DNA from: a virus
Lineage: Duplodnaviria; Heunggongvirae; Uroviricota; Caudoviricetes
IMG/VR virus record: IMGVR_UViG_2671180724_000008
Length of the DNA: 64,000 nucleotides
Reading direction: 5' to 3' (one strand)
Position numbers and translations under genes: made by a program. Shown here in pieces: positions 1 through 49,487 of this stretch (the stretch's first letter is position 1; each line of letters begins with the position of its first letter). The notes beneath the pieces are model-generated. The model saw only the letters and a program-made list of their open reading frames with translations, ran no database searches and was not told the DNA's origin.

Positions 1-1
1 T

Positions 2-265
2 GGCGCAAAAATCTGGGCCGGTCCATTAATGCGAACAGGTGATGTAAGAATTTACAACGCAAAAACTGAGACGTTCGAGGATGTGTTAGGCGAATATGGG
101 ATGGGAAAAGAAACCGGCTTTTTGCCGTGGAACAGAGGATTGTTACTTGATCCAGAATTAAGCTCTTGGTTTCCAAATAAGGTGCAAGTTAACGTTGAGA
201 AATTTATCGTACTTATCATCTCCCGCAAAACAAGAACCCCAGTTGGTTTATATCTAAAAGATTAA
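2..265 (+). CDS. Hypothetical protein, C-terminal part of a gene starting upstream of the window
   Basis: Frame open from position 2 with no upstream stop; followed by hairpin plus T-run at 267-294. Confidence 0.35.
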   Translation, partial: GAKIWAGPLMRTGDVRIYNAKTETFEDVLGEYGMGKETGFLPWNRGLLLDPELSSWFPNKVQVNVEKFIVLIISRKTRTPVGLYLKD

Positions 266-266
266 C

Positions 267-294
267 AATTAGGCGACTTCTGTCGCCTTTTTTG
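267..294 (+). terminator. Rho-independent terminator (GGCGAC-ttct-GTCGCC then TTTTTT)
   Basis: GC hairpin followed by T-run directly after stop codon. Confidence 0.7.
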
Positions 295-390
295 TTAACA
301 GCCATTGATTCTCGCCTAAAAATTCTAAGGCAGCACCTACCATTTAACCTTTACACAGCAGCCGTAGGCATTTAGGCTATATCACATATA

Positions 391-409
391 AGAAAACAAG
401 TTGTTTCAG
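391..409. promoter_or_regulatory. Copy of recurring palindromic motif AGAAAACAAgTTGTTT upstream of parA
   Basis: Same motif recurs upstream of at least eight other genes in the window. Confidence 0.4.
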
Positions 410-441
410 ACAATAATAATAGACGCAAAGGGAACTCTCCA

Positions 442-1110
442 ATGACCAAGATCTTTGTGGTTGGCGGCACAAAGGGCGGGCCTGGCAAATCCACTGTTGC
501 CCAGCAAATTGCCGTTTGCCTGAAAGTCAAAAAGAAGAAGAAGGTTTATATCACTGATATAGATATTCAGCGCACGACAACAAGCTGGTGTGAAGACCGT
601 CGACAGAACGAAGACCTTGAGCTGATTCCTTTTGCCTACGTTCAGGATGACATCATTAAGCACCTAAAATCGCTTCAGGGTAGAGCTGAGTTTGTAGTGG
701 TAGATGCTGGTGGCTTTGACTCCGAAATTCAGCGACAAGCGATGCTGATGGCCGACGTTATCATTATCCCGCTGCGTCCTAAGCGTCGTGATTTGAAATC
801 TCTGCGTGACATCGATCCTATTATCGACAATGTTCGTAATGTAAACGATAAAGTGAAGGTCCGCGCGGTCATGAACCAGTGCCCGGCTTTGCCATCACAA
901 GTGTCTCGCATTCTGGCGGCTAAAGAGATTGTCGAGACGTTTGGCATCGAGTCTGCGCCAGTCAATCTATATAACCGCAACGTCTACGATGATGCGGAAG
1001 AGTCTGGTCGTTCTATCTTCGAAATGACCGGTAGCGAGCGCGACAAAAAGGCTGAAGCCGAGTTTGAAGAATTTGTAGATTATCTGTTGAGTCTGGAGGA
1101 AGAAGAATAA
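442..1110 (+). CDS. parA: ParA/MinD-family partition ATPase
   Basis: Deviant Walker A GGTKGGPGKST near N-terminus; about 220 aa; followed by overlapping small gene. Confidence 0.8.
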   Translation: MTKIFVVGGTKGGPGKSTVAQQIAVCLKVKKKKKVYITDIDIQRTTTSWCEDRRQNEDLELIPFAYVQDDIIKHLKSLQGRAEFVVVDAGGFDSEIQRQAMLMADVIIIPLRPKRRDLKSLRDIDPIIDNVRNVNDKVKVRAVMNQCPALPSQVSRILAAKEIVETFGIESAPVNLYNRNVYDDAEESGRSIFEMTGSERDKKAEAEFEEFVDYLLSLEEEE

Positions 1111-1469
1111 TGTCCATGAAAATGGGTGACCTAGCAAAGCGCAAAGAGCCTGATGCACCGGCTAAGAACACAACTCCTTTGCGCCAACCAGTCAGACCAC
1201 AGGGACGCCCGACTCGTGGCAAAGAGAAAATTAAGAGCCGCACGATGTCACTGGAGGACGAATACTTCGAACTGCTGGAGATGATGAAGTTCATCCCTCG
1301 TTTCGAGAAATTCACCCGTTCAGACGTGATTCGCGCAGCCATTTTCCATCTGGCAGAGAAGTCACCGCAGGAAATCGAGGACATCGTGAAACTTAACGAG
1401 GCGATCACAGCTGCCGATGTCACGATGCGTACCGATGAAATCAAACGAGAGTTGATGAAAAAAGGTTAA
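1110..1469 (+). CDS. Small basic protein, putative partition partner (ParB/ParG-like centromere-binding protein)
   Basis: Start overlaps parA stop (ATGA-type coupling); basic N-terminus; no motif recognised. Confidence 0.4.
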   Translation: MSMKMGDLAKRKEPDAPAKNTTPLRQPVRPQGRPTRGKEKIKSRTMSLEDEYFELLEMMKFIPRFEKFTRSDVIRAAIFHLAEKSPQEIEDIVKLNEAITAADVTMRTDEIKRELMKKG

Positions 1470-1475
1470 AAATCA

Positions 1476-1508
1476 TGCATTGGCGCAATGTACGCGCCAA
1501 TGCATGAC
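1476..1508. terminator. Strong 13-bp hairpin (CATGCATTGGCGC-aatgtac-GCGCCAATGCATG) between convergent genes; possible bidirectional terminator
   Basis: Perfect inverted repeat between the parA-operon stop and the stop of the minus-strand GIY-YIG gene. Confidence 0.55.
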
Positions 1509-1521
1509 TACAGTGTCAGCT

Positions 1522-2289
1522 TTATGCCGCGCTAACACTATGTTCAGTCCTAACCACCCCAACCTTCACAAAAGGGCTACCGTAGCTTGGTGGCTTCTTG
1601 ATTAATTTGCCTACATACAGTTTTCTAATATGCTCATCGGCTATTCTGCCAACAAATTCATAACGTTTTGTGTCGGGGCCAAGAGCTATATCCCTTGTAA
1701 AGTACTGCTGAGAACCGGCTTTGACCCAGCATTCAATCCGATAAACTTCCATTATCAGCCCACCATATGTAGCGTAGGCATATTTGAGATTCTCGTCTCT
1801 TGGAACCTTTGCCCATACGCCACGCGTAGCTTCATATAATGCCAGAGCGGACATTCCTGACTTGTAGGTGCTGTTTAGCAGGAAGGCAAGACCGGCGTGC
1901 TCAGGAGCAATTTCAGTTTCCTCTTGCAGCACTAAGTGATGGTAGGCGTCCAGTGATATTCTGCCCATCATGGAACCACTTCCTCGTACCTTATTCGTAA
2001 GCTCTCCGACCCCCATAAGGTCGATGCATGTCGCCTCAACAAGTTTGGCTGTGGTTTCATCCATACCATGACGAAGTATATCTATGCCTAATTTTTTATT
2101 AGCCAAAAGTTCTTTGATCCGCATGGATTTGGGAGAGTCATCGGGATACTTGATGTGATCGAGACAACGAGTCGATTTGCCTTTTCCTATGTAAAACGGT
2201 CTTTTCATCTTGTCTTCTGTATCATAGAGACAGTAAACATAGTATTTAGCCTTATCCAATGATCTCGCGTATACCGATAAATCGTCCAT
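1522..2289 (-). CDS. GIY-YIG nuclease-domain protein, possible free-standing homing endonuclease
   Basis: N-terminal YVYCLYD...PFYIGKGK...R...H matches the GIY-YIG signature; encoded opposite to the surrounding genes. Confidence 0.55.
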   Translation of the reverse strand: MDDLSVYARSLDKAKYYVYCLYDTEDKMKRPFYIGKGKSTRCLDHIKYPDDSPKSMRIKELLANKKLGIDILRHGMDETTAKLVEATCIDLMGVGELTNKVRGSGSMMGRISLDAYHHLVLQEETEIAPEHAGLAFLLNSTYKSGMSALALYEATRGVWAKVPRDENLKYAYATYGGLIMEVYRIECWVKAGSQQYFTRDIALGPDTKRYEFVGRIADEHIRKLYVGKLIKKPPSYGSPFVKVGVVRTEHSVSAA

Positions 2290-2400
2290 TATTGCATCTC
2301 TTAGCTACTGACTAATGCGTTCTATTTTACACATAAGTTTTTAATCAATTTAACAGGCTCAAAGTGTAGAGCTTCTGGGCGTCTAAGACGACAAGTTATG

Positions 2401-2458
2401 CCTGCTTCCGTATATATAAATAATAAGTAACTTATTAAATATATACAGAAGCAGGTCT
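2401..2458. repeat. Long hairpin element (CCTGCTTCCGTA, AT-rich loop about 35 nt, TACAGAAGCAGG) with T-run; similar copy at 49095-49153
   Basis: 12-bp stems in two related copies; loop of this copy contains the ATAAGTA..CTTAT palindrome. Confidence 0.5.
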
Positions 2459-2562
2459 TTTAAAAGACACCACCAGAACAACTCCCTTCCGTTTCCACTT
2501 CCAAAAACTGCCACCAGTCGCTATCATCCGCCCATTGTGATAAGTAAGTAACTACCTACCAG

Positions 2563-3312
2563 GTGAGCCACATGAGCCAAATCTTTTTCGACACCATCGA
2601 CAACGACCAGTACGACTTCATGACAGAGTGGAATACCGCTGTTATGGATAAGTGGGTTGCTGAAAACATTGGTTTGTCGCGTTGCAAAGACGAGGCTGAA
2701 CTCTTCGATACGAAGTGGTTTGATTACCGCGACATGCATCCTCTTATGGCCACCTGTCTGTTTACAGAGGCATACAAACGTCAGTACTCAAATATCATGC
2801 TGACGCACGGTCGAGAACACTTTGAAACAGCTCCGTTCACCACCGGGTTAAAACGCCTGCCTTATCAGGAGTTGTCGACTGCCAATAAAACGTCGCTATG
2901 GAAAGCACGCCAGTTTGCTGACCGCTATTGCTGCTCATACGACTACTTTATTTCCACCGTTCTTTCCGCAGCTGCACGACGACTGTGGGACAAGCTGCCG
3001 CGTCCGCAGCATTTGTGGCAGCCAGAACTGATTGAGATATTCGAAGATAAATTAGCCAGACGCGCAACAACCCGTCTGGATGACTCTCTGGTTAGCTTTA
3101 AGCATATGGGAGACATGCAGTTCAACCCGATTCAGGAAAGCTATTTTGAGTGGATTCTGGAGCGTTTACGCGCCATCCCCCGCAGCAAGCGCATACGCGC
3201 AATTTTCTCCGCTATCTGGCTAATGGAAATCGTTCCAGAGCGCCTTATTTCCGCCCACTTTCCAGAAGAACTGGAAGAAGCACGGCGGTTTATTGATCCC
3301 CTATCTAATTAA
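2563..3312 (+). CDS. Hypothetical protein (directly upstream of the helicase)
   Basis: 249-aa ORF; no motif recognised. Confidence 0.5.
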   Translation: MSHMSQIFFDTIDNDQYDFMTEWNTAVMDKWVAENIGLSRCKDEAELFDTKWFDYRDMHPLMATCLFTEAYKRQYSNIMLTHGREHFETAPFTTGLKRLPYQELSTANKTSLWKARQFADRYCCSYDYFISTVLSAAARRLWDKLPRPQHLWQPELIEIFEDKLARRATTRLDDSLVSFKHMGDMQFNPIQESYFEWILERLRAIPRSKRIRAIFSAIWLMEIVPERLISAHFPEELEEARRFIDPLSN

Positions 3313-3355
3313 CTAATACTAGAAAACAATTTGTTTAAAAAACAAAGGAAAGCAC

Positions 3356-4696
3356 ATGACCGAACTTTGCCATACAGGACGCGGGCTGTCCGAAGAGTTT
3401 GATGAAGATTTCCAGAACAGACTGACGGCATATTTTTGTCGTGATCACGAGTTTCTTACTCGTGCGGGAGATCTGGTTGTGCCTAGCCAATTTGCCAATG
3501 CGGCCAATGCCATATTGGTTAATATGGTTTCGGGCTATTACCGTATGTACAAGAGCGCGCCCTCTTCATCTGCAATTCTGGATATGCTTAAGCGTGCGAA
3601 ACGCGATAAGACTATCCGTGAGGAACTATTCGCCGATGTTGTTGCTGCGTTTAAGCGCATCCTTGCAGAAAAATTGTCCGATACCTCGTACATGGTTGAC
3701 CAGGTATCAACCTTCGCAAAAAGCGTAGCGTTTGATGATGCTCTGATTAAGGCTGCTGAACTGAAAGAGAAGGGCGACTTTCAGGGGGCGATGGCAATCA
3801 TGGCCAAGGTTCAGCAGATTGGATCGAATGAAGCGACCGGAATCTATGACTACTACACCTCCGCAAGTGAGCGATTGAAAGCGCGTGAATATGAGGCTTC
3901 AGAGGAGTATGTACCAAACAGTATTACAACTGGACTCCCTCTTCTCGATAGGTTGCTGTACCAAAAAGGCTGGGCAAAGCGCGAAATGGTGCTCTTCATG
4001 GGGTTCGCTAAATCCGGTAAATCGACCGCAATGGGTGAGTTTTCCATAAACGCAACGCTTGCCGGCTACAATGTTCTGTATCTCTCGCTGGAGGTTCACA
4101 CCAACATTTTGTCCGACCGCTTTGATGCAAGATTGTCGGAGACGGAAATGTCCAAGCTGGTGGAACGGCGCGATGAAGTTCATCGTAAGTTGGCAGAGTT
4201 GGGAGCCACGAAGGGGATTGGTAGTTTGTGGGTTGTTGAGCGTCCGTCAGGAAGTATGTCACCGGCCGATCTGGACCGTATGCTTAACAGTATGAAAGCC
4301 AATGGCATGGTGCCTGACATGGTTGTTGTCGACTACGCAGATTTGATGCGTGCCAGTTATGACCTTCGTGATGATCGCGCCAATATTCGTAGTATCTACA
4401 CCGATTTACGTGCTCTTTATGACAAACATAACGTTGCTGGGATCACGGCATCGCAGACAAACCGTGAAGGTGGCGCGTCAGAAGTTGCCACAATGATGCA
4501 CGCTGCCGACAACATCGAAAAAGTACGTATTGCTGACCTGGTAATAACGATCAACAAAACCGAAGAAGAAGAAGCGAAAGGAGAGGCTCGTCTCTACTTT
4601 GCTGGTTCGCGTAACCAGCAGGGAGGGATCAGCATTCGCGTTAAACAAAACCTCGAACAAATGCGCTTCATTGAGCGAATCTTAGACGTTACCTAA
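3356..4696 (+). CDS. DnaB-family replicative DNA helicase
   Basis: RecA-fold Walker A GFAKSGKST and Walker B-like MVVVDYADLM; conserved AAAGGAAAgCACATG initiation context. Confidence 0.8.
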   Translation: MTELCHTGRGLSEEFDEDFQNRLTAYFCRDHEFLTRAGDLVVPSQFANAANAILVNMVSGYYRMYKSAPSSSAILDMLKRAKRDKTIREELFADVVAAFKRILAEKLSDTSYMVDQVSTFAKSVAFDDALIKAAELKEKGDFQGAMAIMAKVQQIGSNEATGIYDYYTSASERLKAREYEASEEYVPNSITTGLPLLDRLLYQKGWAKREMVLFMGFAKSGKSTAMGEFSINATLAGYNVLYLSLEVHTNILSDRFDARLSETEMSKLVERRDEVHRKLAELGATKGIGSLWVVERPSGSMSPADLDRMLNSMKANGMVPDMVVVDYADLMRASYDLRDDRANIRSIYTDLRALYDKHNVAGITASQTNREGGASEVATMMHAADNIEKVRIADLVITINKTEEEEAKGEARLYFAGSRNQQGGISIRVKQNLEQMRFIERILDVT

Positions 4697-4701
4697 AAAA
4701 T

Positions 4702-4726
4702 AAGCGTGGAGAACACCTCCACGCTT
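4702..4726. other. Hairpin AAGCGTGGAG-aacac-CTCCACGCTT in the helicase-primase intergenic region
   Basis: Perfect 10-bp stem; T-run lies on the minus-strand side, so not a plus-strand terminator. Confidence 0.4.
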
Positions 4727-4777
4727 GATTCATTGGTGAAACAACTTTTCTTTTGCCAAACCACAAAAGAAAAACAC

Positions 4778-5959
4778 ATGAGCCTTTATGTTATATCAAC
4801 ATTTAGGTTGGTCACAATATTGCCTGTTAAAAGTGGAATTATCGTGAGCGAGCTGAAAGAGCTAATTACCGAATTAGATTTTGAACAATGGTTGGACACT
4901 GAAGGTATCGTTTATCGACGTGGAGGTGTGAGTGCTCGCGGTCGTGAAGTGAATATCAAGGAGTGTCCGGTATGCGGCAGCTCCAACTGGAAGGTATATT
5001 TCAATCTGACCAGTGGCGTCGGCAAATGCTTCGCTGGTGATCATCCCGAAGAGATTCAGTTCAATAAGCTGGTCTTCCTCAAGCACTACAGCGGTAAATC
5101 ACGACGACAGTTCGAGGAATATGTGCAGAACGCTCTTCTTTCCCAGGGGTGGGCACCAAAGAAAGAAGAGATAGTGCTTGCAAGCACAGTCGAGTTAGAG
5201 GGACCACTTGCACTCCCTCGTCATTACGAGCTTCCTATAGATGGCCGTCTTCCAGACTATCTGGTTGAACGAAACATATCACCTGAAATGGCAAAGTATT
5301 TTGACCTACGATACTGCGTCGAAGGCAAGCACGCTTATGTAGATCCGTATACAGATCAGGTAAAAGGACAGATATTCGATATGCGAGTACTGATACCGGT
5401 TTACGATCTGGATGGGGTAATGAAGACATTTCAGGGACGAGACATTACCGGTACAGCAGACCGCCGCTACCTCTTTCCTATGCAGCTTCCAGCTTCAGGT
5501 AAGTTTCTCTACAACGGCCATAATGCGGTCGGCAAACAGACTGTAGTTGTCTGTGAGGGGGCGTTCGATGTTATGGGGGTTAAACGAGCTATTTTTGATG
5601 AAGAAACATTACGTGATTACGTGGAACCGATAGGAACGTTCGGGATGCATCTATCTGGTAACACCACTCAGGATGCAGAAGATCAGTTAGGCGCGTTCCT
5701 GACGCTCAAGGCGCGTGGGTTACGTAATGTGATCATGATGTGGGATAGTGAAAAGCAAGCTATACGCAACACTATGGCCGCAGCCAGGCGACTGACCAGT
5801 ATCGGTCTTAATGTCAAAGTTGCGTGTTTGGGTGAGGAAGGACTCGACCCAGGCGGTGCAACGCCAGAACAAATTATCAAAGCCTATTATCGGGCAAAAC
5901 CGTATACCAAACAGTTGGAGTTGCAAAGCAAGGTTTTGGGCATTAAGGCTCTATCGTAA
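4778..5959 (+). CDS. DNA primase (zinc-ribbon plus TOPRIM, DnaG-like)
   Basis: CPVCGSS...GKC zinc motif and VVVCEGAFDVMG TOPRIM-like motif; start set at 4778 by the conserved AAAACACATG context. Confidence 0.75.
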   Translation: MSLYVISTFRLVTILPVKSGIIVSELKELITELDFEQWLDTEGIVYRRGGVSARGREVNIKECPVCGSSNWKVYFNLTSGVGKCFAGDHPEEIQFNKLVFLKHYSGKSRRQFEEYVQNALLSQGWAPKKEEIVLASTVELEGPLALPRHYELPIDGRLPDYLVERNISPEMAKYFDLRYCVEGKHAYVDPYTDQVKGQIFDMRVLIPVYDLDGVMKTFQGRDITGTADRRYLFPMQLPASGKFLYNGHNAVGKQTVVVCEGAFDVMGVKRAIFDEETLRDYVEPIGTFGMHLSGNTTQDAEDQLGAFLTLKARGLRNVIMMWDSEKQAIRNTMAAARRLTSIGLNVKVACLGEEGLDPGGATPEQIIKAYYRAKPYTKQLELQSKVLGIKALS

Positions 5960-5973
5960 CAAACGCCGTTAAA

Positions 5974-5994
5974 ATAAGTAGATGATTACTTATC
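5974..5994. promoter_or_regulatory. Copy of intergenic palindrome family ATAAGTA-N-TACTTATC
   Basis: One of about 15 dispersed copies, all intergenic. Confidence 0.4.
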
Positions 5995-6034
5995 TTTCTG
6001 TAAGAATACTTTCATCTGTTAGCTAGGAGTTGGT

Positions 6035-48477: not shown

Positions 48478-49071
48478 ATGATTGCAGCCGAAAAAATCAA
48501 ACAGCGAAAGCGCGACAACTCTCTTCGTGACCTCTGGAGAACACCTGATTGGCTGTTTTCTGCCATTCAACGTTATCTTGGAGTGACATTTGATGTTGAC
48601 GTTGCCTGCAACAAGGACAATGCAAAGCTGCCTAATTTCATAGGCATTGAGCGTGATGCTTTGAAATCTGAATGGGGACAGCCAGGTACAATTGCCTTCC
48701 TCAATCCACCCTACTCCAAAATCTCCCCCTGGATTGATGCGGCTATACGTGAGCAGGCTCGCGGAGTTACAACAGTGATGCTAATTCCTCAATCCCTCGA
48801 TACAAAGTGGTATGAGCGTGCAACAGAGTATGCGAATGAGACGATTATTCTGTCTGGTGGCCGCGTAGCGTTTGTCGAGCCTGACGTCAATTTGGGTCAG
48901 GTAGAAGTAAACATCAACCCCGGTGGCAGTATGCTCGTTGTTTTTCGAGGATTCTGTCAGGACGCTGGGCACTCTATAAGCAAGATCCCTTTGGACGTCA
49001 TGAAAAGTCTGGGAGGGTATGATCCTGCGAATGTGGTCAGGAAAAAAAGACCATCAAAGAAGGCTGCTTAG
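48478..49071 (+). CDS. Phage-type DNA N6-adenine methyltransferase (Dam family)
   Basis: WRTPDWLF, FDVDVA and NPPYS motifs. Confidence 0.8.
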   Translation: MIAAEKIKQRKRDNSLRDLWRTPDWLFSAIQRYLGVTFDVDVACNKDNAKLPNFIGIERDALKSEWGQPGTIAFLNPPYSKISPWIDAAIREQARGVTTVMLIPQSLDTKWYERATEYANETIILSGGRVAFVEPDVNLGQVEVNINPGGSMLVVFRGFCQDAGHSISKIPLDVMKSLGGYDPANVVRKKRPSKKAA

Positions 49072-49094: not shown

Positions 49095-49153
49095 CCTGCT
49101 TCTGTAAATAAATAACTACATATTAATTATTAATATACGGAAGCAGGCTGTTT
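49095..49153. repeat. Long hairpin element (CCTGCTTCTGTA, AT-rich loop, TACGGAAGCAGG); second copy of the 2401-2458 element
   Basis: Near-identical 12-bp stems. Confidence 0.5.
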
Positions 49154-49256: not shown

Positions 49257-49487
49257 ATGTCATACCCGACCAATGTTGTTGCGCTCGTAGAGAGCGATTT
49301 TCTGGCTAAGGCTCGTGAAATGATGAAAGATCGCGAGCAGGCTTTCAACTTGTACGAATGGGCAATTAAGTGCTTGCATCTTGGGGAGCATCGCGAACTT
49401 GTTGAACAGCTTTTAGGTGAGTTGATCAACGAGGTGTTTGCCTTGAATGTTCAACTACATGGTCGAGAAAATAATCAATCGAAATGA
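49257..49487 (+). CDS. Small hypothetical protein
   Basis: 76-aa ORF. Confidence 0.4.
   Translation: MSYPTNVVALVESDFLAKAREMMKDREQAFNLYEWAIKCLHLGEHRELVEQLLGELINEVFALNVQLHGRENNQSK

Follow-up and report, generated by a model that had tools for sequence, protein, structure and literature searches.

A GIY-YIG nuclease gene near the start of the 64,000-nucleotide (nt) stretch of viral DNA analysed here (IMG/VR record IMGVR_UViG_2671180724_000008, Caudoviricetes; hereafter the window) very probably encodes a modification-dependent restriction endonuclease that belongs, as a divergent member with a short loop, to the PD-T4-3/CMoRE family; borne on a single-gene cassette in a defence hotspot of a phage-plasmid, it would shield lysogens from phages with modified DNA. 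Our analysis establishes the two-domain homology, the conservation of the catalytic motif, the boundaries of the cassette, the alternative occupants of the site and the movement of the cassette from one diverged backbone to another; the biochemical specificity, expression and defence phenotype are predicted by homology at about 24–29% identity. The PD-T4-3/CMoRE family itself is known, and what our analysis adds is the definition of the hotspot, the divergent short-loop member of the family and a lead connecting its sensor domain to PUA-like folds.

In PD-T4-3, a single gene whose product has a GIY-YIG domain is described as sufficient to make up a system that guards E. coli against T-even phages (10.1101/2024.12.20.629700); it is known from E. 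coli ECOR68, APEC O1 and O157:H7 (Vassallo et al. 2022, as cited in PMC12923530). A PD-T4-3 homologue degrades modified T4 DNA, spares T4-GT7 DNA and also degrades the mom-modified DNA of Mu (PMC12366544). Liu et al. 2026 renamed PD-T4-3 as CMoRE, a type IV modification-dependent endonuclease with structures 9U7U and 9U75 (PMC12923530), and the enzyme degrades DNA containing 5-hydroxymethylcytosine (5hmC) or glucosyl-hydroxymethylcytosine (5ghmC), providing defence against T-even phages (PMC12923530; PMC12366544; 10.1101/2024.12.20.629700).

In RefSeq the window gene is named merely ‘LEM-3-like GIY-YIG domain-containing protein’ or ‘hypothetical’, its product falls only in the unannotated PHROGs family phrog_5356, and an NCBIfam search returned no match for it or for the alternative cargo described below. 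Pfam places LEM-3_GIY-YIG at residues 32–104 (E=5.6e-7, exceeding the gathering score). The homology to PD-T4-3 extends much further along the chain: the PADLOC PD-T4-3 model (PDLC04031) matches residues 11–231 over profile positions 11–238 of 256 (E=1.6e-23), phmmer aligns the chains of both crystal structures, 9U7U and 9U75, over residues 12–230 (E about 2e-15), and a family profile built from 38 homologues matches 9u7u_A with E=6.6e-23 (positions 10–232 against 15–244), spanning both domains. An AlphaFold2 model of the protein, with a predicted local distance difference test (pLDDT) score of 81.9 and a disordered linker at residues 93–105, returned PD-T4-3 entries as all of its top four Foldseek matches (E 5e-11 to 3e-10, probability 1.00). 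The protein also has the build of the family, being the product of a single gene, with two domains and about 250 residues.

Y17-V-Y19, Y33-I-G35, R41, E85 and N99 do not vary among the 38 homologues. The third tyrosine that distinguishes the ‘GIYxY-YIG’ motif is present, with Y17 and Y19 aligning with Y17 and Y19 of CMoRE and Y33-I-G35 with its Y31, and R41 and E85 align with the catalytic Arg and Glu of CMoRE. Judged from these alignments, the catalytic signature is intact, and the invariance of the catalytic and many C-terminal residues among the homologues argues for purifying selection on an active enzyme. A wider search collected 411 proteins at E<=1e-5, nearly all of about 246 residues and including lone chromosomal genes. 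The homologues of 75–76% identity are also lone chromosomal genes, amid housekeeping genes, in Salmonella, where one adjoins guaA, and in a second enterobacterial genome, where another lies near mutS (its protein is named from Providencia heimbachae).

An earlier reading of the DNA, made from the letters without database searches (the sequence-only reading), had left the C-terminal domain unassigned, noting that it might just as well be some other type of effector. This caution was warranted, as the domain is homologous to the modification-sensing domain of the CMoRE crystal structures and would thus be a CMoRE-type sensor of modified bases. Its structural likenesses include the N-terminal domains of McrB, Lon and ATP-sulfurylase, with modest scores and identities of <=12%, which suggests, as a lead and not as proof, that the CMoRE sensor may be a highly divergent PUA-like (ASCH/YTH/EVE) barrel. 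The sensor was published as a distinct fold with no structural homologues (PMC12923530), and a PUA-superfamily sensor joined to a nuclease is the canonical architecture of modification-dependent restriction (PMC7897488, PMC6765204).

To place the gene in its replicon, the first 6 kb of the window were compared with relatives. Bases 335–6000 share 98% identity with Escherichia phages PhiR41_1 and CMS-2020a and 82% with Salmonella phage SSU5, and ~700 plasmids in PLSDB match the region, with hosts in Klebsiella, Escherichia, Enterobacter, Salmonella and other genera and the majority typed as non-mobilizable; on the strength of these matches we assign the window to an SSU5-like phage-plasmid of E. 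coli. The GIY-YIG gene sits between a partition module (parA and a parB-like gene) and a replication module and, as the sequence-only reading stated, is antisense to all its neighbours, its open reading frame (1522–2289) lying on the minus strand and parA, the parB-like gene, the phrog_2500 gene, the helicase gene and the primase gene all on the plus strand (Table 1).

Alignment to phage Cyrano, which carries other cargo at this site, defines the ends of the cassette: homology stops at ~1467, just past the parB-like stop codon, and restarts exactly at 2401, the first base of a palindrome. The suggestion of a discrete insertion with presence/absence polymorphism is borne out by relatives, in which NZ_CP027369.1 and pSAN1-1735 have empty alleles of about 33 bp, so that the gene is not universal at this position. 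Among 5426 complete E. coli genomes, 107 have the cassette, on plasmids only and with no chromosomal copy, and 264 have the parAB flank, plasmid-borne in all; about 40% of SSU5-like phage-plasmids in this collection thus carry the cassette and about 60% are without it. In pEc1675 the cassette is 98.8% identical to that of the window, despite flanks of only 87% (parAB) and 85–88% (right side) identity, which indicates that it moved as a unit between diverged backbones. The right boundary in this pair is sharp at 2400/2401, with mismatches restarting at 2405, and the left flank contains a fully identical 120-bp tract (1341–1459). Transfer could have occurred through recombination in the homologous flanks or through something more precise. 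Within the cassette, the region upstream of the gene contains a –10-like TAAAAT at 2327–2322 and AAGAG 9–13 nt ahead of the ATG.

A 158-bp remnant of the hairpin end of the cassette, 93% identical, was also found in the 142-kb E. coli plasmid NZ_CP107722.1 (locus L015, 3001–3158), where it adjoins IS26 and fragments of other insertion sequences (IS), outside the usual phage-plasmid setting; it looks like debris of an IS-mediated rearrangement.

The sequence-only reading had described the gene as bracketed by a 13-bp perfect hairpin at 1476–1508 and a 12-bp-stem element at 2401–2458. Both strong hairpins are real and far beyond chance, with some revision of their extents: the left one is indeed perfect, with arms of 14 nt, and the right one is longer, a near-perfect 55-nt palindrome at 2401–2455. 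They do not, however, form a matched pair around the insertion, since the left hairpin belongs to the cassette and the right one to the conserved backbone, whatever the cargo.

The left hairpin folds at –28.5 kcal/mol as minus-strand RNA (z=–5.6) and at –25.4 kcal/mol as plus-strand RNA (z=–4.3), and none of 200 shuffles is as stable. UUUUUAACCUUUUUU follows the stem on the minus strand, and the plus strand has no U-tract; with a U-tract on the minus strand alone, we read the hairpin as most likely the nuclease gene's terminator, probably an intrinsic one, placed head-to-head with the end of parAB. Relatives with other cargo do not have it, and in each of them a different hairpin comes directly after the parB-like stop codon. 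The stem is kept intact by a compensatory change, C1474/G1506 to T/A, in two plasmids (L016, L017), and in PhiR41_1 one substitution leaves a G·U pair in the minus-strand RNA. An Rfam search of bases 1–6000 found no family for either hairpin, returning only a chance-level IS009 match inside the helicase gene. As a separate observation, the 7-nt loop (1487–1493) is inverted between otherwise 99%-identical cassettes, reading AATGTAC in the window and GTACATT in PhiR41_1 (L001, 2653–2659), an inversion such as recombination between the arms of an inverted repeat can cause.

The right palindrome has outer arms of 17 nt that are 94% complementary, with more AT-rich pairing inside, and folds at –26.2 kcal/mol (z=–7.05), a stability that none of 200 shuffles reaches. 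It is present in the eight other slot states and backbones examined, including both empty sites, and we therefore rejected the idea that it moves with the cassette. Another copy, with 83% identity, lies directly past a plus-strand gene ending at 49071 and ahead of a gene starting at 49258; the region round it is collinear in all relatives sampled, which weakens the idea that the palindrome is a site of cassette recombination. Together, these features make it look like a repeated inter-operon terminator of SSU5-like phage-plasmids.

Next, the range of occupants of the site was surveyed by searching PLSDB with an artificial empty-site query in which bases 335–1467 were joined to 2401–4400. The query matched 704 plasmids, and in a spread sample of 60 rows there were 31 with both flanks matched; their slots fall into length classes of ~33, ~820–830, ~919–935, ~1125–1290, ~1756 and ~2031–2039 bp. 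Besides the GIY-YIG gene, the site carries at least five unrelated types of cargo (Table 1), and the phrog_2500 gene is kept downstream of it in the relatives fetched. With conserved flanks and mutually exclusive cargo rich in known defence genes, the slot behaves as a defence hotspot. This agrees with DefenseFinder assignments of PD-T4-3 and PD-T7-5 to E. coli and Shigella phage-plasmids in clade J of the SSU5 group (10.1101/2025.09.12.675607). Our literature search for this particular slot returned no description of it, only the general occurrence of PD-T4-3 in clade-J SSU5 phage-plasmids.

Two of the occupants have no recognised role. The 357-residue protein of pERB3f3 (L007, 1196–2269) had no Pfam or PADLOC match and only a weak match (E=2e-4, residues 310–345) to a Protein Data Bank chain named MITSUBA-1; the slot of the Shigella sonnei plasmid NZ_CP053753.1 is equal in length to that of pERB3f3. 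We regard this phrog_22329 protein as a candidate for an unrecognised defence gene. The overlapping genes for phrog_22270 (214–259 residues) and phrog_17322 (136 residues), found in SSU5 (L003, 2637–3681), Citrobacter (L018, 1133–2177) and Cronobacter (L019, 1203–2385), gave no Pfam, PADLOC or NCBIfam match, and may form a two-gene defence or toxin–antitoxin module.

Several results weigh against placing the window protein in the PD-T4-3/CMoRE family with the properties of its characterised members. Identity to the characterised enzymes is just about 24–29%, so the substrate specificity may differ, and the global TM-score to 9U75 is low, at 0.37, a value that we attribute to a different relative orientation of the modelled domains across the low-confidence linker. 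The acidic α2–α3 loop is 5–6 residues shorter than that of CMoRE (HIK-YPDDSPKS versus RGEVAAVDDDELLNNK) and has one adjacent DD pair, not CMoRE's run of four acidic residues; the acidic autoinhibitory loop described for CMoRE is therefore not present in that form, although ‘most’ members of the family, not all, are reported to have this insertion, which spans about 15 residues and includes four acidic ones in a row (PMC12923530). The short loop is found throughout the subfamily, with 2–5 scattered acidic residues per member, and our literature search found no experiment on this subfamily. On the side of expression, a scan for the sigma-70 consensus found no promoter for the GIY-YIG gene, and a consensus terminator scan listed neither the left hairpin nor the right palindrome, so that the terminator calls rest on reading of the sequence and on folding.

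Under the reading that we prefer, the slot between the parB-like stop codon and the 55-nt palindrome holds a 933-bp single-gene cassette of the PD-T4-3/CMoRE family. In the lysogen, the gene would be expressed from its own promoter, convergent with parAB, with transcription ended by the hairpin terminator of the cassette. The enzyme would then bind incoming phage DNA with modified bases, which in characterised relatives are 5-hydroxymethylcytosine and glucosyl-hydroxymethylcytosine, and cut it, sparing the unmodified DNA of the host and the phage-plasmid, so that the carrier cell, and hence the phage-plasmid, would be protected from T-even-like phages.

The sequence-only reading had taken the gene for a free-standing GIY-YIG homing endonuclease, which would cut the empty parB–palindrome junction of related phage-plasmids and be copied in by recombinational repair. 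Such an element would account for a free-standing gene on the opposite strand amid conserved genes, for the empty-site alleles and for the spread between diverged backbones, in which the 120-bp identical left tract could be a product of co-conversion. The protein, however, is homologous over its full length to a type IV restriction enzyme, sensor domain included, and searches of Pfam and NCBIfam found no NUMOD, IENR1, zinc-finger or helix-turn-helix (HTH) module in it. The slot is also shared with unrelated cargo not known as nucleases (PD-T7-5, DUF2971/PDC-S31 and the KAP nucleoside triphosphatase (NTPase)/PDC-S49), so that the polymorphism belongs to the slot rather than to the GIY-YIG nuclease. 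With homologues of 75–76% identity standing as lone chromosomal genes in other contexts, no co-conversion tract at the sharp right breakpoint, and just one of the two bracketing hairpins belonging to the insertion, we consider homing extremely improbable. The position of the gene beside the replication module could instead indicate a nuclease of the lytic cycle, degrading host DNA as T4 EndoII does or acting in replication or recombination, with no part in defence of the lysogen. We hold this to be very improbable: the gene is dispensable and replaceable, given the E. coli backbones that lack it and the empty slots, it is transcribed against the flanking operons, its family includes lone genes of bacterial chromosomes, and the architecture with a sensor domain is typical of modification-dependent restriction enzymes (PMC7897488).

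Closer to our preferred reading is a PD-T4-3-family nuclease that is inactive or has another target, be it a different base modification or a role in competition between plasmids and phages rather than against T-even phages; its shortened safety-catch loop would point to another mode of control. The invariance of catalytic and C-terminal residues noted above speaks against this alternative. Low identity to the characterised members, a loop that is short throughout the subfamily and the plasticity of the family towards substrates, with Mu attacked besides T4 (PMC12366544), speak for it. CMoRE contacts the 5-hydroxymethyl group via a main-chain atom (PMC12923530), and for this reason the same specificity is compatible with the window sequence; a check of this contact (CMoRE Y127) was uninformative, owing to the main-chain contact and the poorly aligned linker. 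On balance, we find an inactive or retargeted enzyme quite unlikely. A linked proposal, to which we give a slim chance, combines two elements, namely that the slot is a precise cassette-exchange site and that the short-loop subfamily has a different modification target or control; the lead of a divergent PUA-like barrel in the CMoRE sensor comes in addition. An exchange site would fit cassettes that bring their own hairpin and abut the same palindrome, an integron-like arrangement with no integrase in view.

Table 1 Features of the window around the GIY-YIG gene, and states of the slot in relatives
Feature	Position	Strand	Remarks
parA	442–1110	+	Pfam MipZ/ParA/CbiA matches; left conserved flank
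Small parB-like gene	1110–1469	+	phrog_5111; without Pfam match; left conserved flank
Putative defence cassette, 933 bp	1468–2400	–	Terminator hairpin (probable), gene for GIY-YIG nuclease with putative PUA-like domain, and upstream region
Hairpin, 14-bp perfect stem, 7-nt loop	1473–1507 (arms 1473–1486, 1494–1507)	–	Probable intrinsic terminator of GIY-YIG gene
GIY-YIG nuclease open reading frame, 255 residues	1522–2289	–	Pfam LEM-3_GIY-YIG
Protein layout			GIY-YIG domain, residues about 12–92; disordered linker, 93–105; C-terminal sensor domain (by homology), about 106–245
Upstream region of gene, inside cassette	2290–2400	–	Presumed own promoter and ribosome-binding site
Conserved palindrome, CCTGYTTCYGTATAT...ATATACRGAAGCAGG then TCTTTT	2401–2462	+	Terminator-like; right border of slot
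phrog_2500 gene, function not assigned	2563–3312	+	phrog_2500 E=1.5e-112; right conserved flank, head of helicase/primase replication module
DnaB-like helicase	3356–4696	+	
Primase	4706–5959	+	
Second palindrome copy (83% identical), CCTGCTTCTGTAAAT...ATATACGGAAGCAGG then CTGTTTTG	49095–49147		
Empty slot, about 33 bp from parB-like stop to palindrome			NZ_CP027369.1 (L005); pSAN1-1735 (L009)
Slot cargo, single gene			Cyrano; SSU5: DUF2971 protein matching PDC-S31
Slot cargo, single gene			pG749_2: KAP-family NTPase matching PDC-S49
Slot cargo, two genes			pHXH-2: PDC-S31 and PD-T7-5 (E=1.8e-139)
Slot cargo, single minus-strand gene			pERB3f3, also Shigella sonnei plasmid NZ_CP053753.1: 357 residues, phrog_22329, function not assigned
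Slot cargo, two genes			SSU5, Citrobacter, Cronobacter: phrog_22270 and phrog_17322

Other features of the left flank drew our attention. In phage Cyrano, the counterpart of the parB-like gene (CYRAN_29; L002, 2276–2635) is annotated ‘RelE/ParE putative toxin’, a label that may be wrong, as the gene, a phrog_5111 member without a Pfam match, is by position the partner of the ParA partition ATPase. Upstream of parA, relatives from E. coli and Salmonella align only from base 332–335 of the window and one Klebsiella phage-plasmid from base 2, and the corresponding position holds a KacT toxin/antitoxin pair in Cyrano and two hypothetical genes in PhiR41_1, which points to a second variable cargo slot immediately upstream of parA. 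The window also has a terminator-like hairpin at about 270–295.

According to the analysis, a gene on about 40% of SSU5-like phage-plasmids in complete E. coli genomes probably serves in the modification-dependent restriction of phages that enter the cell. The analysis also delimits a compact defence hotspot with sharp borders, placed between the partition module and the replication module of clinically common elements. Carriage of such cassettes could alter the outcome of therapy with T-even-like phages. The unannotated occupants, the 357-residue phrog_22329 protein and the phrog_22270/phrog_17322 module, are ready candidates for new anti-phage genes. If the CMoRE sensor is PUA-like, the family would join the mainstream architecture of type IV restriction enzymes.

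Compared with known PD-T4-3/CMoRE enzymes, which need a homotetramer (dimer of dimers) for function, the window protein has in common a single gene of about 250 residues and, at the N terminus, a GIY-YIG domain that includes the extra tyrosine (YVY...YIG) along with the conserved Arg and Glu; it differs in its ~24–29% identity, its short DD loop and its location on a phage-plasmid cassette. Among enzymes that join a PUA-superfamily sensor to a nuclease, such as the EVE-HNH enzyme VcaM4I (PMC7897488), PUA/DUF3427 fusions (PMC6765204) and those with McrB N-terminal domains, the nucleases are HNH or PD-(D/E)XK, whereas that of the window is GIY-YIG and placed N-terminally; in addition, CMoRE is reported to bind its ligand at an edge and not in a pocket (PMC12923530).

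With the homing endonucleases I-TevI and T4 Seg, the window protein shares a catalytic domain of the GIY-YIG type as well as a presence/absence polymorphism with intact empty alleles, but it differs from them in having no detected homing DNA-binding modules, in its predicted base-modification sensor, in the sharing of its slot and in its lone chromosomal homologues. The slot itself recalls the defence hotspots of temperate phages and satellites (P2/P4-type) that were reportedly described by Rousset et al. in 2022, in that a fixed site amid conserved core genes receives mutually exclusive defence cargo, often a single gene. It differs from them in belonging to a phage-plasmid, in lying between partition and replication modules, and in an organisation in which every cassette brings a hairpin along and a conserved palindrome bounds the slot on the right.

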